The notes below the pieces were generated by a model that did not search any database, was not told the origin of the DNA, and was given only the letters and a program-made list of their open reading frames with translations. Position numbers and translations under genes: made by a program. Below are positions 8,709 to 59,957 of a stretch of 59,957 nucleotides of DNA, piece by piece. Source of the DNA: a virus; IMG/VR virus record IMGVR_UViG_3300047160_003019, positions 1 to 59,957 of that record, one strand, 5' to 3'. Position 1 is the first letter of the stretch, and every line of letters starts with the position of its first letter.

Positions 8709-8717
8709 GAGTTCATC

Positions 8718-8885: not shown

Positions 8886-9121
8886 AGACCACTGACAAAG
8901 GACGGTTTGGACCCTGGGAACCCATGCAGGGTGCTCGGGGGCGCGCAGAAGCCCTCCAGACCGAGAACTCGGTGGCCCCGAGTGCGGACCGTAAAAATAG
9001 GAAGTATAAGGAGGCGGTGGCGAACCCTACCAGAGTCAAGCCAGAGCAGATGAGGCGAAGCCGGAATATGGCCCGACGCGGTCTGTCAGCCGGGTCAAGC
9101 CCCAACGGTCCAGATAGGTGA
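8882..9121 (+). CDS. hypothetical basic protein (79 aa)
   Basis: ATGA coupling to the upstream ORF. Confidence 0.5.
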   Translation: MKTTDKGRFGPWEPMQGARGRAEALQTENSVAPSADRKNRKYKEAVANPTRVKPEQMRRSRNMARRGLSAGSSPNGPDR

Positions 9122-9147
9122 GTCAGGCCAACCGAAGGGAGGACTGA

Positions 9148-9645
9148 ATGGCTGCCAAGAAGACACTCTGCGTTGATTTTGATGGCGTTCTGCACTCGTA
9201 TACCAGCGGGTGGGCTGGGTTGGAAGTTATCAAGGATGCCCCGGTGTCAGGGGCGATGGAGTTCTTGTATGATGCGGTGCGTGTGTTCAATGTCTGTGTG
9301 TTTTCGTCGCGGTCAGCGACCCCACAGGGCATCAAGGCGATGCAACAGTGGCTTGATTGGCACGCATCGGAATGCAACTTTGACTACGGGAGGCCATGGT
9401 GGCTCCAAATTGAGTGGCCAATCCACAAGCCCGCGGCGTTTGTGACTATTGATGATCGGGCGATCCAATTTACGGGGAGTTGGCCAAGTATGAATGAGCT
9501 TTTTAACTTCAAGACCTGGTTCGAACAACAGAAAGCGGGTCATGAAGTTAGCGAGCAAGAACTTTTGGCCGCTATGGCTAAGCCTGGGACAATGCAAGAG
9601 GCGCTGTCTCATGCTACGGATCTGTTGAAGAAGGGAGAAGTGTGA
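9148..9645 (+). CDS. HAD-superfamily phosphatase / 5'-nucleotidase-like protein (165 aa)
   Basis: Motif I CVDFDGVLH (DxDxV) and motif IV-like TIDDRA. GAAGGGAGG SD. Confidence 0.75.
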   Translation: MAAKKTLCVDFDGVLHSYTSGWAGLEVIKDAPVSGAMEFLYDAVRVFNVCVFSSRSATPQGIKAMQQWLDWHASECNFDYGRPWWLQIEWPIHKPAAFVTIDDRAIQFTGSWPSMNELFNFKTWFEQQKAGHEVSEQELLAAMAKPGTMQEALSHATDLLKKGEV

Positions 9646-17014: not shown

Positions 17015-17042
17015 GGTCAAGCGGACGAAAGTGAGCGAGAAG

Positions 17043-18572
17043 ATGGCTAACGGTGACGATCAATATAGTGACCTGAGAGCGGAAGGGCTTGGGACGGAGG
17101 CTGGTAGATATGCCCAAGGCTGGGGCTATGGGTCAGGTGTGTTCAATCCGCTGATGCCGACGCAGCAGAGTACGAACCCGTTAAAACGAATGAGTCCGGA
17201 ACAGGCGGCGGCTATGTATTCGGGAGGGTACGGGCCTGATTTCTTTAGTGCAGAACTGATAAAGAATATGGTACAGGGAATGTATGGGTTGGCGAGTAAG
17301 CCGAGCCAGGTAATATCGGGTGAGTTCCCAGTCAGGCCAGGATCAACTGATGTAAGTGATGTTAAACCGATTACACAGTATGGAGGGGAGTTGGCACTTG
17401 CGGGTATGGGTGTTGGTATGGCCGCGCCTCCGACCAGTGCCGGTATGTTCGCTAGTATCGGATCGAGGACTGCTCGACTGACCCCAGACAGATTTGCTAA
17501 AATTGGATTGGGGGAGGGGTCAGTTGTAGAAGCAATGGATATGGCTAAGAAAGGAATACATAGGGATGAGGTGTTTGCCAGGACTGGATGGTTTCAGGAT
17601 GCAGGTGGCAATTGGTTGTCTATTATAAATGACCGGAATGCAAGGATGAAGTTGCATAATCTGGATAACCTTGGGACTGATCCGAATTATCCCCAGTATG
17701 GGGATCTTTATGGACCTAAAGCGCCAAATATTATGAAGCCGGGGACACAGAAAGTAGGAGATGTATTTGACCATCCAGAGTTGTACGAAGCATATCCGTT
17801 TCTGAAGGACATCCCAATTGAGTATATACCTCCTGAGATGGTAACGGGAGCGGGTGGGTATAGAATGAGTGGAGGTTATCATCCTCCCATGGGTTCAACG
17901 CCTCATAAACTTGCATTGGCACCTAACACCCCAGAGGGTTTACAGAGTGTGTTAGTGCATGAGTTGCAACACGCTATACAATATAGAGAACTGCACGGTA
18001 GAGGCGGAAGCGCAGGGGAGTTTTTACCACCTGGGTTTGAAGAAGGGCTTGCACATCTGGAAAATGGGAAGAATGACATTGAGAATCTTTTCCATCAAGC
18101 TGGATTAGATCCTAATGATGTTCAGCGGTATCATGGGATAGGTCCATATAGCCATTTAGGGCCTGAGAGAGGGTTTTTGAGTCCTATGGAAGAATACCTT
18201 ATGAAAGCAATACCCTCAGATATGATTAAAAGTTATGGTAATCTACTGAACATGCACGATTATGCGTCAATGGTTAATAACCGGGCGTTCAAAGATTATC
18301 TAAATTTGTCAGGGGAAGTTGTATCTAGAGCAGCACAATCACAAGGGGCCTTGAAGGATTGGAGTCAACCACTCTGGAGGATACCAGACTTCACAGGAAC
18401 TATGGGTGTTGGTGGGTATCCTGCGTTTTGGTATCCGGTGGAGTATGGTAATCAGTTATCTATTCATCCATATCGTCCTCCGTATGAAGGAGGCTTACTG
18501 GATCATCCGACTGTCAAGGGTAGAAAACTGCCTGGTATAATACCACCGGGTATGTTTCCAGCGCCAGAATAG
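17043..18572 (+). CDS. HExxH zincin metallopeptidase-like virion protein, paralogue 1 (509 aa)
   Basis: MANGDD start after GAGCGAGAAG. Carries VHELQHAIQ, GWFQDAGGNWLSIINDRNARMKL and YLNLSGEVVSRAAQ. Clearly homologous to the next gene. Confidence 0.8.
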   Translation: MANGDDQYSDLRAEGLGTEAGRYAQGWGYGSGVFNPLMPTQQSTNPLKRMSPEQAAAMYSGGYGPDFFSAELIKNMVQGMYGLASKPSQVISGEFPVRPGSTDVSDVKPITQYGGELALAGMGVGMAAPPTSAGMFASIGSRTARLTPDRFAKIGLGEGSVVEAMDMAKKGIHRDEVFARTGWFQDAGGNWLSIINDRNARMKLHNLDNLGTDPNYPQYGDLYGPKAPNIMKPGTQKVGDVFDHPELYEAYPFLKDIPIEYIPPEMVTGAGGYRMSGGYHPPMGSTPHKLALAPNTPEGLQSVLVHELQHAIQYRELHGRGGSAGEFLPPGFEEGLAHLENGKNDIENLFHQAGLDPNDVQRYHGIGPYSHLGPERGFLSPMEEYLMKAIPSDMIKSYGNLLNMHDYASMVNNRAFKDYLNLSGEVVSRAAQSQGALKDWSQPLWRIPDFTGTMGVGGYPAFWYPVEYGNQLSIHPYRPPYEGGLLDHPTVKGRKLPGIIPPGMFPAPE

Positions 18573-18589: not shown

Positions 18590-20008
18590 ATGAATGGGGA
18601 CGGGTCATACGCAACTGACCGTGGGTATGGGTACGGGTCAGATGTGTTTAATGCACTGGCACCGCCGCCAGCTCGTTCAGCGTTGAGTCCGTTTGCGAAG
18701 CCATTTGTGAATATGAGTCCGGAAGAGGCGTTGGCGGTATATAGTGGTGGGTACGGTCCGGACCCGATGGGTGCTAATATGCTGTGGGGAGCTTTGAAGG
18801 GTTTTGGGAATTTTGTGAGTACGCCGGAACGTATTGTGAGTGGGGAGGCGACACCGTATCCTGGATACTCGAACACGGTTAACCCGGCTGCGTATGCTGC
18901 TGAAATGGCGGGGTATGGGCTCGGGATCGCTGGGTGGGGGCCACGGAATCCTACCAGTATGTTTGGTGGGATTAAAGCGGAAACAGCGAAACAGGTAAGC
19001 CCAGGTGATATTTATTCGGCGGCTAATCCAAATACTAATAAGACGTTGAGAGAGGCTTTGGACTTAGAAATGGCTGGAAAGGATAGGGATGAGGTATTTC
19101 GCGGTACTGGGTGGTATAGATTGCCTGATGGTAACTGGTCTTTTAATATAAATGACCGCCCGGCGAGACTAAATCTGAAGAACTTCGATAGGTATCCAGG
19201 TACGGGTGGTGGCCCTACCCTTTACGGCCTTTCAGCTATGCAGAGGTTGAGAGGAGATGTGAAAGTAGGTGATTTGTATAATAATCCTGAGTTGTATGCA
19301 GCATACCCACATCTAAAGGATATACCAGTTAGAGTGAGCCCTCATTTCGGGCCTAGAGAAGCAAGCTATAACCATAATAATAATACTTTAACGATAGGTA
19401 CTGGTACAACAGCTGATGATTTGATGGACTCATTTGGACATGAGTTGGGACATAGTGTTCAATTCTATGAAGGCTGGGCTAGGGGAGGAGCCCCTATGGA
19501 ATTTAGGCGGCCTAACTTCGGACAAATAGCAGGTCAAGTAACACAGTCTAGAAATACTATGGAGCAGGCTTTTAGAGATGCTGGTATTGAGCCTCTTCAT
19601 GTTCGACAGATCCATGGGTTTGGTGAGTTTATGAGACCTACCGATCTTCCTGGTGTTGATCCTACATATGTAAATTTTATAAAGGGATTAGATCCAGCTA
19701 CAATTGGTCCATATAGAGATCTGATAAATTTTTATAAAGAGTTGGGTATGGAGCAAATAAAATCTAATCAGAGTTATCTCAATTTGGCAGGGGAAGTACA
19801 ATCTAGAGCAATTGAGGCGCAGAGAGCTACTAAGAGATACGATCAGCCACTTTGGGAGATACCAGATGTTGTGGCCTATGATTGGGCAACCAAAAAGCCT
19901 GTTCTTGGTTCTCCAGTACCTTATGAACGACAAATTATCTTTCCGTTTGATAGACCTATAACAGCTGGTGGAGGTTTGCAGCCGTGGTCACCGAAACCGA
20001 ACCCATGA
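18590..20008 (+). CDS. HExxH zincin metallopeptidase-like virion protein, paralogue 2 (472 aa)
   Basis: MNGDG start. Carries GHELGHSVQ, GWYRLPDGNWSFNINDRPARLNL and YLNLAGEVQSRAIE. Confidence 0.8.
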   Translation: MNGDGSYATDRGYGYGSDVFNALAPPPARSALSPFAKPFVNMSPEEALAVYSGGYGPDPMGANMLWGALKGFGNFVSTPERIVSGEATPYPGYSNTVNPAAYAAEMAGYGLGIAGWGPRNPTSMFGGIKAETAKQVSPGDIYSAANPNTNKTLREALDLEMAGKDRDEVFRGTGWYRLPDGNWSFNINDRPARLNLKNFDRYPGTGGGPTLYGLSAMQRLRGDVKVGDLYNNPELYAAYPHLKDIPVRVSPHFGPREASYNHNNNTLTIGTGTTADDLMDSFGHELGHSVQFYEGWARGGAPMEFRRPNFGQIAGQVTQSRNTMEQAFRDAGIEPLHVRQIHGFGEFMRPTDLPGVDPTYVNFIKGLDPATIGPYRDLINFYKELGMEQIKSNQSYLNLAGEVQSRAIEAQRATKRYDQPLWEIPDVVAYDWATKKPVLGSPVPYERQIIFPFDRPITAGGGLQPWSPKPNP

Positions 20009-36449: not shown

Positions 36450-37715
36450 TTATTCTACTCCATGCTGATGCCTTGGTCTCGGATACCATGTCTCAGTTCC
36501 AGCAAACCGAGTGATAACATTTGCACCCTCCGCGATCCCAATAACTCGGGCTATCTTGTCTGCCGGTACGCGAGTGGATAGGAAATGAACTATTGAACTC
36601 GTCGGGATGGGTTTCTTCCCATTCCTAATCCATAGTTCCATCATATGGTAGTGTAATTCATCAATAACCGCCGCGTCTGATTTCCCCTGCATGGCGCGGA
36701 AGATGTCGGGCATATGTTTTTCAACATCTATTAACCACCCGATAGACCGCTCCACATCCTCCAGCTCAATTACAAAGTCCTGGGTACGCGAGAAGGCGCT
36801 TATCATACTCAACTTAACTGCGAACTCGGTGCGTGACGTATTGTAGACCTGCAACTTGGTATGGCCTGGTTCTGGCGGGCACCCAGCCATGTGCCACTCA
36901 TTGATCTTATCTGCCGCCTCTGACTGCCATTTCATCTGACCATAAAGAAGGGATACTTGACCTAATCGGTCAAGTATCCTCTTCTTTGCCCTGGCAGCCC
37001 CATTATTATCCACAAATAGCGGCTTCAGTCGCTTTTCGGAACTGTATACCATGATAATGCGGCGGATGAGACCGGTGTTCCAGGTCGCGTCAGGGAAGTG
37101 TTCCGCCAGGTAAGAGGGTTGCATCCCACCCAATATATTTAACTGCGGCATCGCTATCTTGACGCTCTTGGCAGGGCCATGTCGTCTTGACTCTGAATGG
37201 TGGTCACGGTTGTTCCATAGTGCATTGAGGATTGCAACCATGTTAGGGTCATAAGCCGGGAGCAGGACTGCGAACTCTTCGGACGCGACCAGCAGTGAAT
37301 GATGAATGAGGGGCGGACCGTCTTTGGTTATGGTCACATTCTTGGCTTCAGCCAACTCGTCTATTATGGATGCCCTAGTCACACTATCAGACGCGACATT
37401 GAAGGCGTGACCACCAGTCGGGTCCATAGTCTCGGCCCACATTGCTTTAACATCCTCGATTATGCCCTTACCTGTCCCTGGTGGGCCAACCAACATGGTG
37501 TACAGGTTTGGGTACGTTCTTTTTCCACCAACCGCCCTGGTCCATATCCTTCGCCCCATCGCACCACCAACCAGAGCAATCCCGCTCCATAATCGGTGGA
37601 TGTCTGTTGTAACTGAAGAATCAGTGTAACTTAACCAATCTGATACCAGATCGGTCCAGTGACCATTGAGCACGGAAGCCTCACTACCATTGAGGGTTCC
37701 ACTTATCCAACCCAC
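36450..37715 (-). CDS. P-loop NTPase, probable replicative helicase (421 aa)
   Basis: Walker A LVGPPGTGKG and Walker B-like LLVASEEF. Adjacent to the polymerase gene. No primase domain was recognised. Confidence 0.7.
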   Translation of the reverse strand: MGWISGTLNGSEASVLNGHWTDLVSDWLSYTDSSVTTDIHRLWSGIALVGGAMGRRIWTRAVGGKRTYPNLYTMLVGPPGTGKGIIEDVKAMWAETMDPTGGHAFNVASDSVTRASIIDELAEAKNVTITKDGPPLIHHSLLVASEEFAVLLPAYDPNMVAILNALWNNRDHHSESRRHGPAKSVKIAMPQLNILGGMQPSYLAEHFPDATWNTGLIRRIIMVYSSEKRLKPLFVDNNGAARAKKRILDRLGQVSLLYGQMKWQSEAADKINEWHMAGCPPEPGHTKLQVYNTSRTEFAVKLSMISAFSRTQDFVIELEDVERSIGWLIDVEKHMPDIFRAMQGKSDAAVIDELHYHMMELWIRNGKKPIPTSSIVHFLSTRVPADKIARVIGIAEGANVITRFAGTETWYPRPRHQHGVE

Positions 37716-39183
37716 GAGAATTGGTCTTGGACTTGTATCCCCAATTGTACCCTACCTTAGCGTCACTGGGGACTTCAAATGTTCGTCCACTCTTCGGGTC
37801 TACCATCTGGTGCCGTATCAAACTGCGCACTTCGTGCACAGTTTGATCAAACTTGTCATCGTCCACCACTTGGAACGTGATTGAGTCATATCCCTGTCCC
37901 AACAACTGTACTCGTGGTCGAAGCTCCTTCCATGTTTTCCAGAACCCCAGGTTGGTACGGTCCGATGTGGTAGACTGTGGAATGTAAGCGATGCCCTCTC
38001 GAAGAGTGACATCGCTTGAGGTGTCCCCGAAGAAGTGGCGTTCGCGACCAAAGGGTGTTATGAGCCGATAATTGGTCTGTATCTCGTTAGAGACCCACTC
38101 CCAGTAGCGGGGGATTGAAGGGAAAGCTGCGTTGTGCCCTCGACAGAACCGATCCTGGAAGTCTTCGGCGACCTGTTGAGTGATCTTGAGGTGACGAGCC
38201 ATTGTCCATGCGGTTCCCATATAGTCAGACAAATGTGCACCACGCTTTGCCATATCACGATAACTGAATTGGCGGTAGAAACTTCTGTCGGCAGTTGCAC
38301 GGTCCCCCACCTTATCTCCCGGCCATGGTAGTTCGGGCCACACAAGTTTTGCAACGTTTGTATGCAAATCACCAGACTCGCAGGCGTCTAGGAATGACCA
38401 GTCCTGGAAGATGCACCCGATGAGGAACCCGAGGTCTCGGGCTTCCGACTGCTCAAAATCAACGACACAAAGCCGGAACCCAGGGTCGGCAACAAAGATA
38501 TAACGCAGTCCAGGTGAGATGTTCTGAGCATTCCCACCTGTTCCAAATGCGTTCTCAGAAGATGAAGGTCTTCCCGACTCAGTTCCAGCGATATTGTAAG
38601 ACGATCGGAACCTTCCATCTGGGTCAACATCGTGACTGAGTACTTCATGCTGTTTGGAAAGGTCGCGGATAGCGAGGATGTGGGAGATGAAGGGGCGGGC
38701 GTAGAGGTAGGTTTCATATAGCTTCTCCAGTGCGGTACGGTCCATACTCAGCTTGCGGACCCCCTTCTTGCTTGTCCACTGCTCCGGGAGCCTCAGCACT
38801 TCATAAAATAGTCTCGGCAGTTGACTTGTAGACGATCTCGGTAGGGCTTCGTCAAAGGGCTTCTGGCTAGGTTGCAAAATCGCGTTACACAGTAACATCA
38901 GCTGGTTTCGGAGCTTCCGTATTCGTTGTTCCAGTCCCAGGATCGCTTCCTGTCTGGCGTTCATATCAATCCGGAACCCACGCTGCATTACCTCCAGGTA
39001 TGGTGCTTGCAGCCCACGCTCAAAATCATAAATCATCGAGGCATGAGGTCGAGATGATAGCATCTCGATCTCTATTGGTAGGCACTCTGCGGTCACACAA
39101 TTGTCGAGGCCGCAGTAAATCTGGTGGATTTCGCTAGGACTTAGCTTGGCTAGGTCCATCTTCGCGCTGTCTATTACTGGCAT
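37684..39183 (-). CDS. family A DNA polymerase, polymerase domain only (499 aa)
   Basis: Motif A VVDFEQSEAR (compare DYSQIELR), motif B RDMAKRGAHLSDYMG and a motif C region QGYDSITFQV. Confidence 0.85.
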   Translation of the reverse strand: MPVIDSAKMDLAKLSPSEIHQIYCGLDNCVTAECLPIEIEMLSSRPHASMIYDFERGLQAPYLEVMQRGFRIDMNARQEAILGLEQRIRKLRNQLMLLCNAILQPSQKPFDEALPRSSTSQLPRLFYEVLRLPEQWTSKKGVRKLSMDRTALEKLYETYLYARPFISHILAIRDLSKQHEVLSHDVDPDGRFRSSYNIAGTESGRPSSSENAFGTGGNAQNISPGLRYIFVADPGFRLCVVDFEQSEARDLGFLIGCIFQDWSFLDACESGDLHTNVAKLVWPELPWPGDKVGDRATADRSFYRQFSYRDMAKRGAHLSDYMGTAWTMARHLKITQQVAEDFQDRFCRGHNAAFPSIPRYWEWVSNEIQTNYRLITPFGRERHFFGDTSSDVTLREGIAYIPQSTTSDRTNLGFWKTWKELRPRVQLLGQGYDSITFQVVDDDKFDQTVHEVRSLIRHQMVDPKSGRTFEVPSDAKVGYNWGYKSKTNSRGLDKWNPQW

Positions 39184-39406
39184 CTTCGACCTCTTGAATG
39201 AGTTTGACAGCTTTCTTCGTTACGGTCCAAATATCTTGGTCAGGCATATCTGGATACATCTTATGGCAGGACAAAAAACCAGCTTCCTCCAAATCTTTTA
39301 CAACAGGTCTATAGCTCATTGGCAATCCAACGTACTCGCACGGCTTTGTGGATATGAATTTCAATAACTGATACAAGAATAGTGGAGACCCGGATGATAC
39401 TGCCAT
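39134..39406 (-). CDS. hypothetical protein (90 aa)
   Basis: Internal ATG immediately after the upstream stop. Overlaps the polymerase start by about 50 nt. Confidence 0.5.
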   Translation of the reverse strand: MAVSSGSPLFLYQLLKFISTKPCEYVGLPMSYRPVVKDLEEAGFLSCHKMYPDMPDQDIWTVTKKAVKLIQEVEDASNRQREDGPSQAKS

Positions 39407-39407
39407 C

Positions 39408-39755
39408 TCAAGACTCCATAAGGTCACGAATGTTTTTCCAGGTTGCAGCATTATCAACATGCTCTAAATAGAATATCTTTTTCTGCCGAAGTTTTGCCCA
39501 TTTGATTTCTCGAGCAGTGGACTCCCCTATGTATCCATCTTTGTTTAGTACTAAAATCGCATCACTTTCCTCTATCTTGGCTAGATGGGCAAGGTCCAAA
39601 GTCCATTTCTGATCTTCCGTGTACCAGGATTTGTCACCTTCAACAGAAGGGAAGGTCATCATAGAGTATGATATATGCCCCATAAGTCCTAATCGTTTGT
39701 TCCACTCATGCCAGAGAGCTTCAAATCTAGCAGAACCACAGATAGTAATCTTCAT
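39408..39755 (-). CDS. nucleoside 2-deoxyribosyltransferase-like protein (115 aa)
   Basis: MKITICGSARF... and ILVLNKDGYIGESTAREIKWA fit the NDT/Rcl-type pattern (Rossmann-like start; D.G...E...A). Confidence 0.55.
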   Translation of the reverse strand: MKITICGSARFEALWHEWNKRLGLMGHISYSMMTFPSVEGDKSWYTEDQKWTLDLAHLAKIEESDAILVLNKDGYIGESTAREIKWAKLRQKKIFYLEHVDNAATWKNIRDLMES

Positions 39756-39757
39756 GG

Positions 39758-40954
39758 TTATTCATCCCTCTTCTCGGTATCCGATTTGGCAGTGCGGAGA
39801 CGTTTCCAAGCCACATCGTTTGTGAGAATGGAGCCCAGGAACCCCAAACCTTTCGGTAGCTCAGGGTAGAGTGAGTGCCATGCCAACATAGTATCATCCC
39901 CCATGTTGTTTGGTATCCCTAAGATTTTCATCAGGTATTGTATGTCATAGATACCATTCTGAAAAGATTTAGGAATGGGCGAAGCCAGCATCTCCCATAC
40001 CAAACGCCAGACTTGGACTTCTTCCTCTACAGACCAATAAGAAGTGACCCGTTTGCCATTACGTTCGGGATAGATGACAACGTAACCCGCACCGCGCTTG
40101 ACTCGGTGCGGCCCAAACGGGATCACTAGACTATCATCTGAGCTTCGAGCGAACCCACAGGTGTCAATCATTCCGCCACTAGTCTCAACATCAATCGTGA
40201 GAGACGCTGGCGGACTCGCCAGCGTCTCCCTGATCCATTGCTCGACCTCTTGCAGGGTTGGATTGATTATAATCTGGCGAGAGGGACGGCGTATCTCAGG
40301 GTATTCAGACTCACGGTACGCCTTGATGTAGTCCGCAATAATGATGGGGCGCCGACTCCACATCCCCTCATACAGCAGTGACGCCGGATGGAATGTGGGG
40401 AGACATTTGACTCCATACGTCTCAGACCATGTGGTGGTCCCGCGGAGGGCTGTGATGTTGGTCATACCAAGCATAGCCCAGCAAGCAGTGTTACCCATCA
40501 AACAACAAACGTTTGGTTTCAGTACCGATATGTCTCGGCCCAACCGTTCCAACTGATCCAGGTACTCTGGCCGCAAGTAGCGACCTTTATTAATAGGGGG
40601 GTACGGGTAATTGGCTCCACCAACTTCAGACTTTGTCCCTGATATTGCGCCCAGATCGTTGTTGGGGGGTCGCATGTTAAGGACGTTAGTGAAACCGATC
40701 CCTGCTGCGTGCATCCACTCGTCTCGTTGTCGAACCCACGCCAGCATCCCATAGTCCCAGGAGATTTCGCGTTGGGCTTTAGCATGAAGGTCTGGATAGA
40801 CATCTGGGAAAGCCTCCCCTAGCATACCCCAATGCATCTTACCACTACCACCCACCAGCGGCATCTTCATCTTGTCCTCATCAGCTCCCCACGCCTCCCC
40901 GATCATCAGCATCTTTGGGTTTGGTGGCCCTGAGTATCCCGGAAGGAGGGACAT
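39758..40954 (-). CDS. UDG-like domain fused to a DnaQ-type 3'-5' exonuclease (398 aa); the N-terminal part of a split family A polymerase
   Basis: UDG family-4-like motifs MIGEAWGADED and TFHPASLL. Exonuclease motifs LTIDVETSG (ExoI) and FQNGIYDIQYL (ExoII). Confidence 0.8.
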   Translation of the reverse strand: MSLLPGYSGPPNPKMLMIGEAWGADEDKMKMPLVGGSGKMHWGMLGEAFPDVYPDLHAKAQREISWDYGMLAWVRQRDEWMHAAGIGFTNVLNMRPPNNDLGAISGTKSEVGGANYPYPPINKGRYLRPEYLDQLERLGRDISVLKPNVCCLMGNTACWAMLGMTNITALRGTTTWSETYGVKCLPTFHPASLLYEGMWSRRPIIIADYIKAYRESEYPEIRRPSRQIIINPTLQEVEQWIRETLASPPASLTIDVETSGGMIDTCGFARSSDDSLVIPFGPHRVKRGAGYVVIYPERNGKRVTSYWSVEEEVQVWRLVWEMLASPIPKSFQNGIYDIQYLMKILGIPNNMGDDTMLAWHSLYPELPKGLGFLGSILTNDVAWKRLRTAKSDTEKRDE

Positions 40955-42291
40955 TACAATGTCCCTCCTTCTCGCTTTGAGCCTCTAAAAAGGCGAGCTT
41001 CTTTCAGCTTGAGGCGAGCACTCTTACAGTACCCTTCATTGATCTCCAGTCCCAGCACGGTTTTGGCTCCCAACGCCTCAGCGGCTCGGAGAGACGAGCC
41101 GCTTCCACAGGTAGGATCAAGCATGGTTGTGTGCCCGTCCACTAACATACCCATAAAATACTTCAGCATGGCTTCTGGCTTGGTTGACGGGTGTATCTGG
41201 GTGTCCACTGGACACGCGAATACATCTGACAGCACCTTGAGGATGAACCGGTTACGAGTCCCCAACATGCAGGTATCATAGACGTGCTTGGGCCGTCGCC
41301 TATAGTCAGGCGTTATGCCTGACTCAGCATGAACCCAAATGAGTGGGTGGGGTATCCACATCACACCACCGATACGACTCAGATAGCGTTCTACCTCGGC
41401 CCGGTTCTTGTCGGAGTACCAGAACATGATGTGTCCTGACATCTCGAATAGTCGAGATATGTTATTGACGAAACAATCGAGTAGTAAGGTTGCGGTTTCG
41501 GCTGAGTCTTCATAAAAGGTATGCTCATTGCCCTGTCCAACCGGGCCGTCGGCAACACCGATCCCATACGGGAAGTCACAATGGATAAAGTTGAAGCGGG
41601 GACCGTCATAGGTTGGTGCCCAATCCAAGAAGGAACTATTGAGTATGGCATTGTCGGCATTGGATGTGTCCAGTTCCTCTGGTGCAGGTTTCCGTCTCAG
41701 GAAGACTGACATATCATGGCTGCGTTTGCGGGACTCAGTGCGCTCGATCATGGTGAGCGCCTCAGTCATAGTTTTGCATTCTGCAACCCGACTATCAGAG
41801 AGTTTCTCTGCAATTTTGAGATGGTTGGTGACAACGGCGGGGACCACTGACAGGCTCTCAGCCGTGTCGATCTGTTTCCAACTTGGATCCAGTTGCGTTC
41901 TGAGTTGGTGAATACGGTTGGTGGCCGCGGCGGACTCCTGCCACGTCAGGTCTTTCCGCTTGATATTCTCTTCCAACTCAACGATCTGAAGCTCGATGGG
42001 ACTCAAATCTGTTGTGTACCGTACTGGGACGGAGTCCCATCCTAGATTTTTGCAAGCGGTGTACCGTCGCTCGCCAGCAACCAGTACGTTATCCGGGTTG
42101 ATGATTATGGGGTTGAGCAGGCCCAGGGTTCGGATGGACTCTTGGAGTCCGTTCAGGTCATCTACCTTTTTGCGCTGGCGCTCATCTCGGTTTATGACTA
42201 TTGCGTCAATGGGGAGTCGCAGCACGTCATCCATTATAACGGACATAACTTTCAGTTCCCTGTCAAAAAGAGAAGGGGTGCCAGATGGCAC
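40954..42291 (-). CDS. ParB-like nuclease domain fused to a beta-class N6A/N4C DNA methyltransferase (445 aa)
   Basis: ParB N-domain GLLNPIIINPDNVLVAGERRYTAC. Motif IV HCDFPYG precedes motif I LDPTCGSGSS. Confidence 0.85.
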   Translation of the reverse strand: MPSGTPSLFDRELKVMSVIMDDVLRLPIDAIVINRDERQRKKVDDLNGLQESIRTLGLLNPIIINPDNVLVAGERRYTACKNLGWDSVPVRYTTDLSPIELQIVELEENIKRKDLTWQESAAATNRIHQLRTQLDPSWKQIDTAESLSVVPAVVTNHLKIAEKLSDSRVAECKTMTEALTMIERTESRKRSHDMSVFLRRKPAPEELDTSNADNAILNSSFLDWAPTYDGPRFNFIHCDFPYGIGVADGPVGQGNEHTFYEDSAETATLLLDCFVNNISRLFEMSGHIMFWYSDKNRAEVERYLSRIGGVMWIPHPLIWVHAESGITPDYRRRPKHVYDTCMLGTRNRFILKVLSDVFACPVDTQIHPSTKPEAMLKYFMGMLVDGHTTMLDPTCGSGSSLRAAEALGAKTVLGLEINEGYCKSARLKLKEARLFRGSKREGGTL

Positions 42292-42308
42292 CCCTCAAAG
42301 ATAATGTA

Positions 42309-42776
42309 TTATTTGTAGTCTTCGTTTGGTCCCATAACGCGACCGACTTGGTTGCCGATCTCGTTGGTGTTCTGGTTGAGGTACTGCTGGACCTCAATGT
42401 TTACGTCTGCCCCAATGACCTGCGGGCAGACCTCACCGTACTCCTTCCCCTCCGGCTCAATGTCACAGGACCGGAGGAACTCGTCGAGACGCCACAGGGC
42501 GTCGTCCGTCAGGTAGAAATCCCTGCGCAACCGCACACGTTGCAGGTTGATGGGAACCATGTTCCCCTCGCGGTCTTTGAAGTACCGCTTTTCTTCCGGG
42601 ATCGAGTCCGGCCAAGCGGACAGACTCAGTTGATACCGGACATACGGGGTCTTGTTGGTGTTGTTGTCCCCGTACTCGTAGGACTGTACCTTCCCAGGGT
42701 ACGTCTCGACTGGCAGTGGCGGGGGACGAACCGCCTTCCCTGCGGGCCGCGACAACCAAGCAGTGAAATCAGGCAT
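42309..42776 (-). CDS. hypothetical protein (155 aa); ssDNA-binding role possible, by synteny only
   Basis: Sits between the RecA-like ATPase and the methyltransferase, as DUF669/DUF2815-type genes do in similar modules. Confidence 0.6.
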   Translation of the reverse strand: MPDFTAWLSRPAGKAVRPPPLPVETYPGKVQSYEYGDNNTNKTPYVRYQLSLSAWPDSIPEEKRYFKDREGNMVPINLQRVRLRRDFYLTDDALWRLDEFLRSCDIEPEGKEYGEVCPQVIGADVNIEVQQYLNQNTNEIGNQVGRVMGPNEDYK

Positions 42777-42808
42777 GACTTTCTCTCTTTCGTGAGTGAG
42801 TAAGTAAG

Positions 42809-43771
42809 TTAGCTACGCTGAGTGAGTTGAGTAACGTTCGTTTCGGGTGGCGCCTCCTTTGCAGTTGTTTCGTCTCGAAGAGCCTGAGGTAGTCCTGCAC
42901 GGTAATCTCGGAAGTACTCTGCAAGCCCAGTTTCAAGGTTGTATTCAGGTTTGATCGTGAACGGGGCTGGATTAATCAATTCCACGTTATCGTCGTTATT
43001 GGTGAGGATTTGACGTTTGATAGAGGGATGGTTTCCCACAGATGTAGCTCGGATTGAGTGTGCAAAGAACTGACTGATCTGTGGAGAGATATTAGCACGT
43101 CCAAAGACCTGAGGGAATCCGCGAGCTTGGCGATTAGCACTAACCTGTGGACCTGGGGGTTCCATGAATACGATGTGGCAGATGATAATGACATTACACT
43201 TGATCTCGTCAGACTTCAACAGTTGAAGCTGGCTCCGGATATAATTGTAGGCGTGAGAGTAATCATTGTTGCCAATACTGCCGACTTGGGGACCCTGGGT
43301 TAGATGTCCTGTCAACGATAGCTGATAATACATTGCAGCTTCACAATATCTTGAGAACGAGTCGATGACCAGCACATCATCTGGTCCCCACTTGCTCAGG
43401 TTGCCAGGATGGTCATCCCCATCCTTCCAGTCATTGAGCATCTTACTGATTTTGTACCAGCTGTCACCTTTGGGGACAGCTGTGGCTCCCTGGATGTTAT
43501 AGCCCTCAGTCATAGTGACATAGGAGATGTTGTTGGCAGTTTGGGCAGCCTGTTCTGCGGTCCACAAGCCGGGACGCTGGCGCAAGTACATGCTCTTAGG
43601 GTTAGTGACAAAGTCCCGGATAATCCCTGCCTTCCCATCTAGGTCAATGATCCTGACCTTGTACCCGGCTGCGGCCAGGCTCACCAGTGATCCGGTTTTA
43701 CCGGCCCCGCTGTGGCCCAGGTAGAGCATTTTGATAGCTGGTGTCGCGTTGTATTGGGTGAATTTCGGCAT
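42809..43771 (-). CDS. RecA-like AAA_24-type ATPase (320 aa)
   Basis: Walker A GHSGAGKTG and Walker B VLVIDSFS. Confidence 0.8.
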   Translation of the reverse strand: MPKFTQYNATPAIKMLYLGHSGAGKTGSLVSLAAAGYKVRIIDLDGKAGIIRDFVTNPKSMYLRQRPGLWTAEQAAQTANNISYVTMTEGYNIQGATAVPKGDSWYKISKMLNDWKDGDDHPGNLSKWGPDDVLVIDSFSRYCEAAMYYQLSLTGHLTQGPQVGSIGNNDYSHAYNYIRSQLQLLKSDEIKCNVIIICHIVFMEPPGPQVSANRQARGFPQVFGRANISPQISQFFAHSIRATSVGNHPSIKRQILTNNDDNVELINPAPFTIKPEYNLETGLAEYFRDYRAGLPQALRDETTAKEAPPETNVTQLTQRS

Positions 43772-43917: not shown

Positions 43918-44886
43918 TCAGTAGTCTAGCCTCTCGAAGGTTGGGTCCCACACCCTACGCTTGTACTGGGTTTTTAGTAGTAAGTTGGCTGCGTTGGTGG
44001 AGGGTGCTGCGCACACCTGGCGGAAGGGGCAGCCGCCATACATACCGCAAGCACTATCGTTCATCGGCCAATTGTCATGGAAGGCGCAATCTTCCAGCTG
44101 TTCCAACCAGAACCCCAGGTTGCGATGCCACTCGTCCAACATGGAGTCAGTACGTTGGACGATACCACGGGCGAAGACAGAGAACGATTGGACAACCTGG
44201 CAAGCATCAACCAGTATGCCTTCTGTGTCAACGCCGAATGCATTGCGGGCTGCGATAGTGTAGATAGTAAATTGGTTGTCAGGTGTGAACTTGGCAAACC
44301 AATACTCACCAATGGTGTGTTGGGTAGTTTTAACGTCTGTAACGTACCGCGCCCCATTAAGTTCACCTATGCGGTCAAGGCGACCGCATAGGATGAACTC
44401 CTCACCGGTGGTTGCGGACTTGTAACCGGTCCCAATGCGGAACGGGAGTTCGACCGCCAGACGGTCCGAATTACCGACACGGACTGTTTGGATCGGGTCA
44501 TCTTGGTACTTATCCAAGTACCATACTATGGTTCGGATTAGGGTGTACCGATTCTTGGCCTTGTTGTCAGAGTCCCAGGGTCTGTTCCGTTCCTTGTCCC
44601 AGGTCTCGATCATGATCTGTTTTATGACTTCCAGCTGGGCTTCACGGTGCGCCAGCTGGTTGTTGAGACGGAGGGTCCAATACAACTCAACGGCACGGTG
44701 AAGCATGGTCCCGAATGTCAGGTGGACAGATTCCATTGCGGGTTGGAACCCATAGACTATGCTATAGTAGTAACGCCTCGGGCAGACCTTGAACTCATTG
44801 AGGCTACTGGAGTCCAGAAAGGTTTGCAGCATCTTGTTGGCCTTCGAGAACGAACCGTTCTCAAAGGTCTCAAAGGGGAAACTCAT
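43918..44886 (-). CDS. Cas4/RecB-like PD-(D/E)XK exonuclease with a Cys4 cluster (322 aa)
   Basis: N-terminal CPRRYYY, YVTDVKTT (D-x-K) and C-terminal CGMYGGCPFRQVC. Confidence 0.85.
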   Translation of the reverse strand: MSFPFETFENGSFSKANKMLQTFLDSSSLNEFKVCPRRYYYSIVYGFQPAMESVHLTFGTMLHRAVELYWTLRLNNQLAHREAQLEVIKQIMIETWDKERNRPWDSDNKAKNRYTLIRTIVWYLDKYQDDPIQTVRVGNSDRLAVELPFRIGTGYKSATTGEEFILCGRLDRIGELNGARYVTDVKTTQHTIGEYWFAKFTPDNQFTIYTIAARNAFGVDTEGILVDACQVVQSFSVFARGIVQRTDSMLDEWHRNLGFWLEQLEDCAFHDNWPMNDSACGMYGGCPFRQVCAAPSTNAANLLLKTQYKRRVWDPTFERLDY

Positions 44887-45158
44887 GACGGTTTCCTAAC
44901 CAAACCCAGCTGGGCTGCACTAGTTAGTCTTTTAGGTGGTCCGATGGGTGCCGAAGGCGATGCGGATGGCTGTCGGACTCGGACTTGTCTGACGGTTTCG
45001 GTGGCTGCCAACCGATCTCGCAACTCTTGCATGTGAGTTACGATGTCCATCAGGGACTCCCCCAGAGTTTCCGGGTCGCGGGAGAATAGCTCCTGGAGCG
45101 ACAGCCGATCCACCTGACGAAGTGCGTTGGACTGAGGGATGGGATAGTCATCAGACAT
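44883..45158 (-). CDS. small early protein (91 aa) ending in LTSAAQLGLVRKPS
   Basis: The start at MSDDYP overlaps the upstream stop. Carries the shared C-terminal motif. Confidence 0.7.
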   Translation of the reverse strand: MSDDYPIPQSNALRQVDRLSLQELFSRDPETLGESLMDIVTHMQELRDRLAATETVRQVRVRQPSASPSAPIGPPKRLTSAAQLGLVRKPS

Positions 45159-45390
45159 CTTCCAACTCCTCTTCATCATCCTCCAGGTCGAAGTCTTGGG
45201 CAGTGTGTTCGGCAATCCGCTGGCGGAGTTCCATCACACCTTGGTGGATGTATTCGCGGCAGACATGACCACATCCGACTCTTCGATGCCTCGGGGCACC
45301 AGCCCCGAAATAGCGTTCCAAGAACTCCCAATCTTCGTCATATATTAAGACGTGACGTGGAGTTGTTGGTCGATCAGTCTTCTTTACCAT
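45151..45390 (-). CDS. possible ribbon-helix-helix protein with an acidic tail (79 aa)
   Basis: RHVLIYDEDWEFLERYF looks like an RHH strand-helix. The C-terminus is DFDLEDDEEELEDV. Confidence 0.6.
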   Translation of the reverse strand: MVKKTDRPTTPRHVLIYDEDWEFLERYFGAGAPRHRRVGCGHVCREYIHQGVMELRQRIAEHTAQDFDLEDDEEELEDV

Positions 45391-55017: not shown

Positions 55018-55266
55018 TCACTGGGGTGCCCTCCTCTCAAGCTGGAACTTCACGATCTTGGTAACGTCGCTTTTGGTGATCGGCATTTCGTAGACCAGAC
55101 GAAGGAGTTGGCACACTGGATCAGCTGTGTCTGGGTGTACGTTGGCTGCAAAAAAGTTCATGATAATGATCCAGTCTTTGACGGTCACGGGTTCGCGCCC
55201 TTCAAGCATCCGCTCGCGAGCAGCTTTCAGCATCTCATTGGGGGAAACAAGCTTAGACTTACTCAT
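55018..55266 (-). CDS. hypothetical protein (82 aa)
   Basis: GGAGGA SD directly after a 16-bp hairpin. Confidence 0.7.
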   Translation of the reverse strand: MSKSKLVSPNEMLKAARERMLEGREPVTVKDWIIIMNFFAANVHPDTADPVCQLLRLVYEMPITKSDVTKIVKFQLERRAPQ

Positions 55267-56168
55267 TGTGCATCCTCCATTTCAGAGATTTCCGAAACGG
55301 AAATCTCTGAAATCGGCTGGTAAGCGTTGAGGTAATCGAGTGCCTTCTGCGCCCGGTTAGCAGCAGTGAAGATGGCTTTTTTGTCTTGTTTCAGTACCTT
55401 AAGCCATGAATTAAGGTACTGTGCATGGTCGATCCGCGGTTCGTTGTCGATACCGAGTTGGGCGCAGAGGAAGGCCGCGCCCAATTCGGCGACCAACTCT
55501 TCAAACGCATACGCACTATCACCGAAGCGAGTGGTTTGCAGCTCACGATTGAGGCGCGTCTGGTGTCCGGTCCAATGGATGTGTTCGTGTCCTAGAGTGG
55601 CATAGTATGAGTAGGCGTCTTTGAAGGTGGAGAACTCAGGGATGGCGATGAAATCGTGTGTGGGGGAGTAGTAGGCGCGTTGGCCACCGCTTCGGACCTG
55701 AGCATCCGTGACATTGTTGAAATACTCTTCCGCCACTGTGACACGGTCTCCCACACCAATAGCCTCCGGCTTCGGAGGCTCTTGATAGCCGTCCACCTGC
55801 TGGGAGTTGAACACGAAGAAAGCCCGGATCATCAGGCGCTCCTCGTCCTTGTTCTCCATTATGTTGTAATGGTTCATTTTCTTGTAGAATACCACCAGCT
55901 CGGCCTTCTCGCCGCGGCGGACCTGGCACCCGTGACGAGACCATTGTTTGTATGTGGCCCATACCGGGCTCAGATAGTTTTTGTCCATGGCCGCGGCCCA
56001 CAGGGTGATGATGTTGACTCCGCGGTAGGGGCGACCGTCAGCGGATCGAGGCAGTCCATCACCGATGCTGGGCCTGTACCAGGGGCACGCCCAAGTACCA
56101 AGCTCGTCTTTGTTCATCTCCAATTGAGTGATGATTTTGTTGGTAACAGATTGGTATAGATCAGGCAT
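55263..56168 (-). CDS. ArdC-like protein: N-terminal ssDNA-binding domain plus a C-terminal HExxH zincin (301 aa)
   Basis: GRPYRGVNIITLW (ArdC-N pattern), GHEHIHWTGHQTRLNRE and YAFEELVAELGAAFL. Confidence 0.8.
   Translation of the reverse strand: MPDLYQSVTNKIITQLEMNKDELGTWACPWYRPSIGDGLPRSADGRPYRGVNIITLWAAAMDKNYLSPVWATYKQWSRHGCQVRRGEKAELVVFYKKMNHYNIMENKDEERLMIRAFFVFNSQQVDGYQEPPKPEAIGVGDRVTVAEEYFNNVTDAQVRSGGQRAYYSPTHDFIAIPEFSTFKDAYSYYATLGHEHIHWTGHQTRLNRELQTTRFGDSAYAFEELVAELGAAFLCAQLGIDNEPRIDHAQYLNSWLKVLKQDKKAIFTAANRAQKALDYLNAYQPISEISVSEISEMEDAQ
55279..55313 (-). other. perfect 16-bp stem / 3-nt loop hairpin inside the last codons of the ArdC-like gene
   Basis: ATTTCAGAGATTTCCG-AAA-CGGAAATCTCTGAAAT encodes ISEISVSEISE. 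Confidence 0.7.
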
Positions 56169-56250
56169 CCGATTTACTCCAGAGTGTTGCAACCAGGGAA
56201 GGCGGTTGCCAGATGAGGCATACAATTGTATGCCTCATCAAGCAAACGTC

Positions 56251-56646
56251 TTACTTGCGTTTTAGCCCCAATTGGGCGGCGCTAGTTAACGGTCCTTTAT
56301 TGACAGGTGCCGCTGCGCGAACTGGCGGTTCATTGGCGGTGCGCAGCAGCCCCTGCCCGGATGTGTAAGGGCGTGCATGTTTGGTATAGTATTCACCAGC
56401 AGGCCGCGCGTTCTTGATTGGTAGTTTGTAATACGGTGCGTCTGCTGGCCGTGCCCTGTTGATGGCGGTCTCGAATGCCATCAACAGTCCGCCCATACCG
56501 ATACCGCCGTGGATGAGTGGGGATGGGTCCGCAGTGAATATGAACTGTCCGTTGCGGTCAAGGATTGCGAGGTCACCGGACTCGAGGGGGACCACAATAC
56601 AGGAACAGGTGGAAAGAGCGGCTAGAGCTTCTTCTTTCGGGGTCAT
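56251..56646 (-). CDS. small early protein (131 aa) ending in LTSAAQLGLKRK
   Basis: Start set at MTPKEE. Carries the shared C-terminal motif. Confidence 0.7.
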   Translation of the reverse strand: MTPKEEALAALSTCSCIVVPLESGDLAILDRNGQFIFTADPSPLIHGGIGMGGLLMAFETAINRARPADAPYYKLPIKNARPAGEYYTKHARPYTSGQGLLRTANEPPVRAAAPVNKGPLTSAAQLGLKRK

Positions 56647-56810: not shown

Positions 56811-57497
56811 TTACCTCAATTCGTATGCGGTTCGCTCGTTGATGAAATCTTCTGATGCGTTAATGAAGGTTGGCTCGATCCAAACCTGACGCACCTGAGC
56901 ACGTCCAGTTCCGACGCGGGCATTACGGATGTGCCCGCGACGAAGATGCGGACGGGGAGAGGCGTGATGTCCACCACCTGGCTCAAGAGATGAGGCAGGT
57001 GGGGTTCTGAGGATAACAGTTCGATAGATGCCACGTTTCGCGGCCTTTCCGATACCGAGACGTGCGGCCTTATGGAGTTTCTCTTCTCGGATGACGTTGC
57101 GGGTGGCGAGGGCTACGATCAGGAACTGATATGCGTTGGCCGCACATATTGATCCCATATCAGAATTATTTTTGTTAAGGGTATGTGTTACATCTTTCCA
57201 TCCGTCGCGGTTCTCGGTCTCTATAAAGTAACCCTCGAACTTGTAATTGGTGAACTTTATTTTGGTTAACCAGCGGGATAATCTGTAGTTGGCCTCATCT
57301 TGCAGACGAGATCCCCATCCCTCAAGCACAACATTGAGAAATATGTTTGTGGGGCCAACGATGTCAAAGTCTGGGTATGGTGGCCTAGCAATACCGAGCG
57401 TTACCATGTCATCCCAAGTTGCTTTGACCTCTTCAACAGAGAAGGCCTTGATAAAGGCCTCAGAGATGATGAACTCGGTGCGATCGAACCTGCTCAT
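56811..57497 (-). CDS. hypothetical protein (228 aa)
   Basis: ATGA overlap with the upstream gene and an AAGGTGG SD. Confidence 0.75.
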   Translation of the reverse strand: MSRFDRTEFIISEAFIKAFSVEEVKATWDDMVTLGIARPPYPDFDIVGPTNIFLNVVLEGWGSRLQDEANYRLSRWLTKIKFTNYKFEGYFIETENRDGWKDVTHTLNKNNSDMGSICAANAYQFLIVALATRNVIREEKLHKAARLGIGKAAKRGIYRTVILRTPPASSLEPGGGHHASPRPHLRRGHIRNARVGTGRAQVRQVWIEPTFINASEDFINERTAYELR

Positions 57498-58006
57498 GGG
57501 GCCACCTTTTTGATCCCGAGTTGGGAGGCGGATTGGATACGGCCCTTAATGAGATTGCCCCTGGTGTCAAACTTGCGAGATTTCGGAGGCCCCGCGTCTG
57601 CACGGGCTTCCGAAATGCAGAAGGGGCAATTGGATTGGAGTTTGGTTTTGGCTGAGCGTCCACTGTGGTTTTCCCAGTGACGAATTTGGGCCTCGGTTGG
57701 GTGCCCATCTTCACCCAAACACATGACCTCATCATGAAGGATGAGTTCCCGCCGGAACTCAAGGATGCGGCGTAGGGACTCAAGGTCATTGATTTGGACA
57801 ACATGACGGAGAGGTGAACCCTTCTCATGGAGTTCAGCCTGAATGTGACCTGTGGATGGGTTGAGGGTCACAAAGATATAGAGCTGTGGTGGGTGCTTCG
57901 ACTTCGGACTGAGATGGTCCGAAGTCGTAACGCGCAGCGGCTCCTGATTGGGTTTGGTCTTTTTGTGCCGAGCGACTGATAAGGAGCGAGAGGAGCGAGA
58001 GGGCAT
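57494..58006 (-). CDS. early protein (170 aa) ending in IQSASQLGIKKVAP
   Basis: CCTTGGAGTAACCCAATG start cassette. Carries the shared C-terminal motif. Confidence 0.75.
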   Translation of the reverse strand: MPSRSSRSLSVARHKKTKPNQEPLRVTTSDHLSPKSKHPPQLYIFVTLNPSTGHIQAELHEKGSPLRHVVQINDLESLRRILEFRRELILHDEVMCLGEDGHPTEAQIRHWENHSGRSAKTKLQSNCPFCISEARADAGPPKSRKFDTRGNLIKGRIQSASQLGIKKVAP

Positions 58007-58662: not shown

Positions 58663-59250
58663 TTAACACTCCTCCTCCTCGTCATCGTCGAGTTCCCCGA
58701 TTACACCGCGCCGCGGTGTTTTGTGAGTTTCTAAGGCTTGCTTCAATGACGCTTCCTCTTCTGCAAGGTAGTCAGCGTAGGTGTCGTCTTGAATAGTACC
58801 TTCTGTGATGGCTTCTTTGTACGCTTCATTGAACTCATTTTGTATTTCTTCACGGCTCATGCGAGGCTCTGGTGTTGCGACGCCGCGGGTTGTTATTGAA
58901 ATCTCAACGGTTGGGTTCATAAGCTCGGCTGTTGTACTAAGAGGTAGACGCACATGCTGACGTGGCACAGCACCACGAGACTCACGCAGTTTAGCCATGC
59001 GCTCCTTTGCGCTTCGGTTGGCAGACTCATTAGATTTGAACCGGTAAAATTCTGTCTCAATTGCTGCGCTATATATGGAGTCTATATCAGCAATTTGATG
59101 ACCGATTATAGCTGCGCAGTATGCCAAGTCTTGTTGATCGCGCGGTTTACGTGCTTCGTCTGACAGTGCTTTCTGAATTGATAGGGTTATGTTGCGGTAT
59201 GCGAATGATGCGTTGATTAAGGTGATGATGCGTTCTCTACGGACAGCCAT
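58663..59250 (-). CDS. first gene of the leftward early arm; protein with a strongly acidic C-terminus (195 aa)
   Basis: The ATG at 59250 follows AGGAG. The ORF is open to 59316. The C-terminus is GELDDDEEEEC. Confidence 0.7.
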   Translation of the reverse strand: MAVRRERIITLINASFAYRNITLSIQKALSDEARKPRDQQDLAYCAAIIGHQIADIDSIYSAAIETEFYRFKSNESANRSAKERMAKLRESRGAVPRQHVRLPLSTTAELMNPTVEISITTRGVATPEPRMSREEIQNEFNEAYKEAITEGTIQDDTYADYLAEEEASLKQALETHKTPRRGVIGELDDDEEEEC

Positions 59251-59310
59251 ATCAACTCCTGGGGTTGGCGCGGTTAGTGGGGGCAACCGCTGGTTTGCTA
59301 GTGGGCCGAA

Positions 59311-59341
59311 GGCCATGTTTCATTGAATGAATGATGGCCAT
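59311..59341. promoter_or_regulatory. full palindromic version of the conserved motif: GGCCAT-GT-TTCATT-G-AATGAA-TG-ATGGCCAT
   Basis: Both half-sites carry the GGCCAT flank. Lies about 60-90 nt upstream of the first early start codon. Confidence 0.65.
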
Positions 59342-59643: not shown

Positions 59644-59904
59644 CAGACTGCACACCAATCAATTACTGCACCTTTCGTTCACGATTTGTTCCAATCTCAG
59701 GCACAAAAAAAGCCCGGGGAGCCAACTGCGGCTCCCCGGCTTCATTCATACTAAGTGAGTTGAGTTGAGTTGGTAAGTAAAATCAGACTGCACACCGCTT
59801 CGCGCCAAATACTATGAAGGCAGACTGCACACCAAATAAAAAACAGACTGCACACCAATCTTTTGGAGTAAACCAAAGGTTTACTCCAAAATCAGACTGC
59901 ACAC
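59644..59904 (+). repeat. array of five perfect 13-bp direct repeats CAGACTGCACACC (59644, 59783, 59820, 59843, 59892)
   Basis: Exact copies, all in the same orientation, in a gene-free region. Confidence 0.9.
59705..59739 (-). terminator. rho-independent terminator for the short leftward operon (1454 to 48)
   Basis: 10-bp GC-rich stem CCGGGGAGCC/GGCTCCCCGG with a 6-nt loop, followed on the - strand by T7. Confidence 0.6.
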
Positions 59905-59957
59905 CGATTAAAAGGGCTGGCGGCCCGCAGGGGCAGTGGGAGGATGGGGCTCACGCC
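59860..59957. repeat. second copy of the terminal overlap (identical to 1-98)
   Basis: Verbatim identity. Confidence 0.9.

Follow-up and report, generated by a model that had tools for sequence, protein, structure and literature searches.

Four unrelated proteins of a metagenomic phage end in one probable docking tail that has genome-specific counterparts in related phages

Four leftward genes with one C-terminal tail

The window, meaning the whole 59,957-nt stretch of IMG/VR record IMGVR_UViG_3300047160_003019 analyzed here, is a complete, circularly assembled phage genome of ~59.86 kb with an exact 97-bp direct overlap between its ends (1-97 versus 59861-59957), and its sequence originates from soil-type metagenomes. 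Four genes on the minus strand, here called A to D, encode proteins that finish in nearly the same short peptide. This shared C-terminal tail, its counterparts in related phages, and the partner that it may address are the subject of the present analysis. The four carriers are as follows.

732-1454, minus strand: gene A, 240 amino acids; tail ATSAAQFGLVKRPAA, encoded at 735-779; no domain match
44883-45158, minus strand: gene B, 91 amino acids; tail LTSAAQLGLVRKPS, the last 14 residues, encoded at 44886-44927
56251-56646, minus strand: gene C, 131 amino acids; tail LTSAAQLGLKRK, encoded at 56254-56289; no domain match
57494-58006, minus strand: gene D, 170 amino acids; tail IQSASQLGIKKVAP, encoded at 57497-57538

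All four carriers are real genes with homologues elsewhere, and A to D gave no match against Pfam, PHROGs, or PDB sequences. After circularization, the leftward unit begins with gene A. The stop codon of B overlaps the ATG of a nuclease gene (ATGA), and that of D overlaps the ATG of the next gene. Gene C lies just upstream of an ArdC-like gene, and D is likewise upstream of it. In the AlphaFold2 model of B, helices are confined to residues 11-53, and everything from residue 54 onward is coil. The model of D, a protein with a conserved HWE[DN]H...CPFC segment, was too poor for a fold search (predicted local distance difference test score of 51).

The open reading frames (ORFs) and their termini were as a sequence-only reading of the window had described them. 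The pattern [ST]A[AS]Q[LF]G[LI] matched the six-frame translation exactly four times, always on the minus strand and 3-6 residues from the stop, versus a mean of 0.013 matches expected from mononucleotide shuffles. That reading had also stated that the remainder of the four proteins is dissimilar, that conservation lies in the peptide and not in a recent DNA duplication, and that a Pro/Lys-rich linker precedes each tail, and these statements were borne out. Without their last 16 residues, the carriers showed no significant mutual similarity (best BLASTP E-value 0.3). The 21-nt tail cores are only 11-15/21 identical (52-71%) and differ mostly at synonymous positions, with Ser encoded by TCC, AGT, and AGC and Leu by CTG, TTG, and CTA, which places the conservation at the peptide level. 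The 20-residue stretches ahead of the tails abound in Pro, Ala, Arg, and Lys, and the linker of B was modeled as coil.

The window tails carry a net charge of +2 to +3 and continue for 3-6 residues after the core, and the extreme C-termini vary within the one genome (PAA, KPS, KRK, and VAP). No plus-strand (structural) ORF of the window, scaffold included, has the tail. A core of 9-12 residues, a coil linker, a conserved tail, and four unrelated carriers together give the tail the generic features of a short linear docking motif.

Conserved and genome-specific tails in related phages

No GenBank phage matched 8 kb of the window in a megablast search, and the window thus has no close relative there; a search for an identical PolA likewise came up empty, and the top match of its PolA was Caulobacter phage Kuura, at 36% identity. 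Relatives were surveyed as contigs with B homologues plus 80 IMG/VR loci found via the nuclease as anchor, of 327 nuclease relatives. In all four families, homologues at 39-68% identity retained the tail while the linkers diverged.

A family, relatives at 39-48% identity: tails SSASQFGLVKKAAA, VTSAADMGFSKVRAA, and NVTGSAQIGLVKRPKAA
C family, L014 homologue at 42% identity: tail NVTSSSQLGLVRRPK
D family, L014: NVTSSAQMGLVRRT, then 18 more residues
D family, four more distant homologues: C-terminal TVTDPSQLGF
B family, closest homologues: tails LGTAAAFGITKKK, VNSASEMGFVKVRK, and VSSASQMGFVKVKKD
B family, more distant homologues: ends of the form [DE]LG[LIF] (NPEDLGL, DLSDLGF, and SIEDLGL)
B family, more distant homologues: LDFDDVDFSGA and LDFDEDFFDEA

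The motif is real, selected at the peptide level, and conserved in all four families. The sequence-only reading had proposed a search of related phages for its pattern at C-termini; the tail is kept there, but neither the exact pattern nor its Gln is constant. Gln is replaced by Asp in the A protein of L013, by Glu in P0010, by Ala in P0009, and by Asp or Glu in most B-family members, giving orthologous tails such as SAADMGF, SASEMGF, TAAAFGI, and [DE]LG[LIF], and is retained in the D family. In the alignment, TDLSDLGF of L016 matches TSAAQLGLVRKPS of the window, with the window Gln opposite Asp or Glu, which suggests that the window tail is a neutralized, extended form of the acidic tail. A scan of IMG/VR with tail patterns turned back into DNA produced a single chance match and no real tails, a tail-only profile against 5.8 billion proteins gave 70 candidates with none at E <= 10, and a literal literature search for the strings returned nothing informative.

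Related phages do not simply repeat the window tail. In each genome, 2-4 unrelated early or middle proteins carry one C-terminal tail that is specific to that genome.

L014: three shared tails
L017: FDDVDFS[KG]A, twice
L019: LDFD[DE], twice
L020: L[SN]LDDLGL, twice
L051: DDSITLEDLGL, twice
L032: ATTLEDLGLG, twice
L062, L031, and L035: further shared tails
L088: IKRRKL, three or four times
L052: EELSP[DS]DF, twice
Kuura (L101, OQ067476): [DE]L[SN]IDDL[FL] on Kuura_036 and Kuura_051
47-kb genome (L013 + L021): A = TSAADMGFSKVR, B = SASQMGFVKVK

Kuura is a cultured phage with the same trait. Its Kuura_036 (7787-8113, 108 amino acids), located upstream of the nuclease Kuura_035, ends AELNIDDLFSE, and Kuura_051 (1056-1721, 221 amino acids) ends ADLSIDDLLSTL. 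In the 47-kb genome, the far end of whose contig was recovered from IMG/VR, the A tail was seen first, and the B tail, found afterwards as predicted, shares its MGF-x-KV signature. Tail DNA in the relatives likewise differs at synonymous sites. Among the three window-clade genomes (the window, L014, and the 47-kb genome), tails were 59% identical within a genome versus 42% between orthologues of different genomes (permutation p = 0.003). Within-locus tail pairs scoring at least 40 numbered 15, versus 3 in the null. Phages with a 62% identical PolA carry DFDDVDFSGA.

The carriers in other genomes include proteins of recognizable type. An ORF resembling B precedes the nuclease gene in L016-L021 and in many, but not all, of the IMG/VR loci, and this small protein is a tail carrier in most relatives with a readable ORF at this place. 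In L052, an HNH_3 homing-type endonuclease (12195-12791, E = 1.1e-11) ends QEELSPSDFLPD, versus KEELSPDDFA in its B protein. A second ORF, at 649-1194 of L028, matches HNH_3 weakly (E = 9e-4, short of the Pfam cut-off) and ends ITLDDLTGV, versus LSLDDLGL in B. For the AAA_24/Sak4-like protein of L099, the likeness is limited to a short KRR-type end and could be due to chance. Tandem tail copies occur on the small protein upstream of the nuclease in L074-L080 (e.g., L074 2683-2910) and in L060 (957-1196); they read DLLKELGLASSGDLLKDLGLK and DLLSDLGL...PLDELGLK. Judged by sequence, such tandems suggest that binding may be multivalent, to an oligomeric partner.

Three further observations concern the relatives. 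In Polaromonas phage Tiera (L102), which has no B-nuclease pair, the single-stranded DNA-binding protein (SSB) ends in a canonical DDDIPF, and two other ORFs end ELPSDF and APTSDF (the three ORFs being 9086-9523, 1867-2286, and 8711-9076); these ends may represent tail sharing on a small scale. In L017 (11276-11830) and L018 (7952-8485), the Sak4/AAA_24-like gene beside the nuclease is replaced by a 177-184-amino-acid exonuclease-family protein (phrog_7838), and the tails are of the DFDD type instead of the Leu-Gly-hydrophobic type. When the nuclease alignment was searched against GTDB species genomes, one relative only was found, L020 (CAZWFX010000021.1), a 37-kb contig binned in a Ca. Saccharibacteria metagenome-assembled genome. 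It looks like a phage contig, and the assignment to a Saccharibacteria host is doubtful.

Genome layout and a common docking hub

A P22-like head module (terminase, portal, and coat) occupies the plus strand at 2.2-35.6 kb. The minus strand encodes a replication/recombination module and, further, a PD-(D/E)XK nuclease, a UvrD-like helicase, a HIRAN-like protein, and an ArdC-like protein. The features that bear on the tails and their surroundings are these.

36450-43771, minus strand: replication/recombination module (DUF3987 helicase-like, PolA, UDG-like, ParB-methyltransferase, 155-amino-acid possible SSB, Sak4/AAA_24-like)
42309-42776, minus strand: putative SSB, 155 amino acids; its L020 homologue matches an SSB PHROG; no tail
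43918-44886, minus strand: PD-(D/E)XK nuclease (Pfam PF12705, E = 1.2e-19), translationally coupled to B
55263-56225, minus strand: ArdC-N plus MPTase-PolyVal protein, just downstream of C
16947-18572 and 18590-20008: two LPD23 "polyvalent protein" ORFs, between the portal and scaffold/coat genes

None of the proteins of the replication/recombination module carries the tail, and they are candidate phage-encoded hubs. The 155-amino-acid ORF has no PDB match, and its SSB label is based on one relative's PHROG match. In agreement with the sequence-only reading, no clamp was recognized, and neither was a clamp loader, when the leftward ORFs and the ten largest rightward ones were scanned against Pfam and PHROGs, although a very divergent clamp could escape such scans. 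No tRNA genes were found in the window, so it offers no tRNA-based host clue.

Several side observations were made along the genome. The LPD23 ORFs and the ArdC-N/MPTase-PolyVal protein are possibly injected anti-defense proteins. Strongly acidic C-termini occur on two ORFs, 45151-45390 (...DFDLEDDEEELEDV) and 58663-59316 (...GELDDDEEEEC); the former is the immediate upstream neighbor of B, and L016, L017, L021, and L023 conserve its acidic end. Inverted repeats follow straight after the stops of A (680-735, 26-nt arms, 85% complementarity) and C (56194-56257, 32-nt arms, 81%). Both contain AGGCATAC and may be terminators or operators; no inverted repeat follows the stop of B or D.

The tail is probably an address tag for one common partner, which is not clearly the host sliding clamp. 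The explanation we favor, with modest confidence, is that the tail is a short linear docking motif by which early and middle proteins with no mutual relation are tethered to a single hub in the replication or recombination of phage DNA. The motif core would be T-x4-[Q/D/E]-hydrophobic-Gly-hydrophobic, with a basic extension in the window clade, presented at the end of a flexible Pro/Ala/Lys-rich linker so that the tails of several unrelated proteins could dock into one shared pocket on the hub. Since the clients bear the motif, the hub must bear the pocket, as in the clamp arrangement. B may act as an adaptor whose helical domain holds the nuclease while its tail holds the hub. The hub itself would be a DNA-associated platform. 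A phage protein of the early region or a host protein could fill this role, or the hub could be a pocket recognizing the T...hydrophobic-Gly-hydrophobic core and nothing else. A role of the hub in DNA replication or recombination is suggested by the HNH_3 and AAA_24 carriers and by the B-like ORFs beside the nuclease. Rapid and concerted divergence of the tails points to a hub encoded by the phage, or to a fast-evolving protein of the host, more than to the conserved DnaN pocket.

Several points weigh against this explanation. No partner protein for the tails emerged from the sequences. A scan of seven replication proteins (nuclease, SSB-like, ParB-methyltransferase, UDG-like, PolA, DUF3987, and Sak4-like) in two genomes with window-type tails versus four with acidic tails revealed no clustered charge reversal tracking tail type, which implies that any phage-encoded hub is not obviously in this module or that the charged flanks are irrelevant to binding. 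Across the tail-type change, identity is 82-88% for the SSB-like protein and PolA (PolA 82%). Tail classes track nuclease phylogeny, which weakens the covariation statistics across the wider group, and old gene conversion among the tails could conceivably account for the sharing. A recognizable domain was found in only 2-3 of ~30 carriers, and A, C, and D have no assigned function, so their placement in DNA metabolism depends on the carriers in other genomes.

A more specific version of the hub explanation is possible, although we regard it as speculative. Here, a clamp-like but non-homologous phage platform would recruit its clients through private, genome-specific C-terminal tags across the group, Kuura included. 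The set of clients would change and would include the nuclease adaptor B, homing endonucleases, recombinases, and host-takeover proteins, and the hub and its tags would diversify together, keeping co-infecting relatives or host defenses from using them.

Known docking systems and rival explanations

The closest known system is that of the bacteriophage T4 proteins gp43, gp55, and gp33, which carry interchangeable C-terminal clamp-binding tails on divergent linkers (PMC2988020). The likeness is one of unrelated phage proteins that have a common short C-terminal tail, a divergent unstructured linker, and one hub, and the earlier remark that a shared docking tail on several phage proteins would be unusual overlooked this case (PMC2988020). 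The two systems differ in that T4 encodes its hub, the gp45 clamp, together with a loader, whereas neither is recognizable in the complete window genome. The T4 tails are acidic and hydrophobic, whereas those of the window are neutral to basic. To our knowledge, rapid genome-specific diversification of the tails has not been described for T4.

The sequence-only reading had proposed that the tails resemble beta-clamp-binding motifs and could tether the early proteins to the host DnaN, or to a common phage hub protein. Under the DnaN model, the purpose would be fork recruitment or a block of host replication. Its general part, a shared docking peptide for a common hub, agrees with the conserved and concerted tails; its assignment to DnaN fared worse, and we now consider that assignment unlikely. 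The resemblance that prompted it is genuine. Beta-clamp motifs (QL[SD]LF and QLxLxL; QLVLGL in Pol IV) are short, often C-terminal, and serve many clients of one pocket. QLGL[V] is like the QLGLF through which Pol II docks onto the clamp, and Pol IV does so through a C-terminal LGL that fills clamp subsite 1 (PMC3716654). A motif on the clients and a pocket on the hub is the clamp arrangement, clamp clients typically include nucleases and recombinases, the Pfam and PHROGs scans recognized no clamp of the phage itself, and MuC of phage Mu uses the host clamp.

The details of the tails speak otherwise. Gln at position 1 of a clamp motif, the contact with subsite 2, is conserved in that system, whereas in the orthologues of the window tails it becomes Asp, Glu, or Ala. 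With Gln read as position 1, A (QFGLV) and B (QLGLV) are acceptable, whereas C (QLGLK) and D (QLGIK) place Lys at position 5 and follow it with a basic residue at position 6, that is, Lys/Arg at hydrophobic positions in two of the four tails. In the Pol IV register (xxQLGL), LGL fits, whereas Q1 and L2 are absent, and the family-wide alignment places Gln at position 3 of this register and not at position 1. The T-S-A-A conserved upstream of the core plays no part in clamp motifs. The relatives carry DFDDVDFSGA, IKRRKL, EELSPDDF, IDDLF, and LDDLGL, acidic or basic tails that are unlike clamp motifs and do not suit one conserved pocket, and concerted change that includes the flanks is not expected of a conserved pocket tolerating diverse motifs.

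The acidic tails of the relatives bring a further explanation into view, in which the tails imitate a host hub peptide (the SSB tip DDDIPF or the FtsZ C-terminal LDIPAFLRK) or compete with it, thereby occupying the pockets of host partners. These tails have two hydrophobic residues separated by Gly and stand at a free C-terminus, and LDFDDVDF, DFSDLGI, and LDLDILGIAKK presumably look like SSB-tip or FtsZ peptides. We likewise take DFDDVDF and LDDLGL to be similar, in their acidity and terminal hydrophobic or aromatic residues, to the SSB tip and to the tails of T7 gp2.5 and gp4 that dock on the gp5 polymerase, and the relatives with acidic tails have a PolA plus primase-helicase replisome. The acidic-tail type fits the relatives in part, but not the window. 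The window clade lacks the acidic residues (TDLSDLGF becomes TSAAQLGLVRK), its tails are neutral to basic and stand off the free C-terminus by 3-6 residues, or by 18 in the D homologue of L014, and its carriers are neither SSB nor helicase. Residues beyond the motif make the free-carboxylate recognition typical of the SSB tip impossible, and the diversity of the tails is at odds with a near-universal SSB tip. Mimicry of a host peptide is improbable on these grounds.

The core could also be a docking or degradation signal for a host protease, either an [LIV]-G-[FL] mimic of the ClpP-pocket ligand or a tether to the ClpX N-domain, serving timed removal or inhibition. The hydrophobic-Gly-hydrophobic core is presumably that of the Clp-ATPase IGF/IGL/LGF tripeptide, and the basic ends resemble what we take to be MuA-type and SspB-type ClpX signals. 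However, the extreme C-termini differ within one genome, the motif may precede 18 residues or be repeated, and tails of the DFDDVDF and IDDLF types lack the tripeptide. A protease signal is accordingly very improbable.

Barely probable is the reading of the tails as encapsulin-like cargo-loading peptides that bind the inside of the HK97-fold (P22-like) coat, for packaging and injection with the DNA. The C-terminal position, the flexible linker, the several cargos, and the occasional tandem copies would suit it, as would the P22-like head and the location of C and D near the ArdC-like anti-restriction gene. Encapsulin cargo peptides, as we understand them, are likewise C-terminal, linker-borne, found on several cargos, and co-varying with their partner, and with their Leu-Gly-Ile/Leu plus basic residues, as in DLGIRK and SLGIGSLKR, they presumably resemble the window tails. 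However, the window has no encapsulin gene, and its only HK97-fold protein is the P22-like coat. The scaffold and the other structural-strand proteins are free of the tail, whereas its carriers sit in early/replication units, one of them coupled to the recombination nuclease. Among the carriers in the relatives are HNH endonucleases and, with less certainty, an AAA_24 recombinase. Carriers of DNA metabolism and adjacency to the nuclease argue against capsid loading and against a degradation signal alike.

We give almost no credence to a tail without function, left by short gene-conversion patches or arising as a by-product of a DNA element at gene 3' ends: the hairpins with a common AGGCATAC after A and C would fit it, but B and D have no hairpin and their stops overlap the next gene's start, and the reading is already largely refuted by the synonymous differences between cores only 52-71% identical, by the persistence of the tail in homologues sharing 39-68% identity, and by its recurrence in many genomes. 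Two other candidates were tried and dropped. One was a half helix-turn-helix look-alike, as the protein stops before any recognition helix, and the other was a cleavage site for the ArdC-like metallopeptidase, to which nothing pointed.

A few model phages are already known to have shared docking tails, namely, T4 with its clamp tails and T7 with its acidic tails. What is new here is a tag that takes a different form in each genome and evolves together on all the proteins bearing it, across a large and mostly uncultured phage group, and we know of no earlier description of such a concerted, genome-specific tag. The homing endonucleases of relatives, recent acquisitions that carry the resident tag, suggest that it is easily gained and is useful for access to replicating or recombining DNA. 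If the docking explanation is true, the tag would become an annotation tool, in that an ORF ending in its genome's tag would belong to the same interaction network. It would thereby give a functional handle on otherwise unannotated proteins and point to the hub protein, and Caulobacter phage Kuura provides a cultured system in which the partner could be found experimentally.

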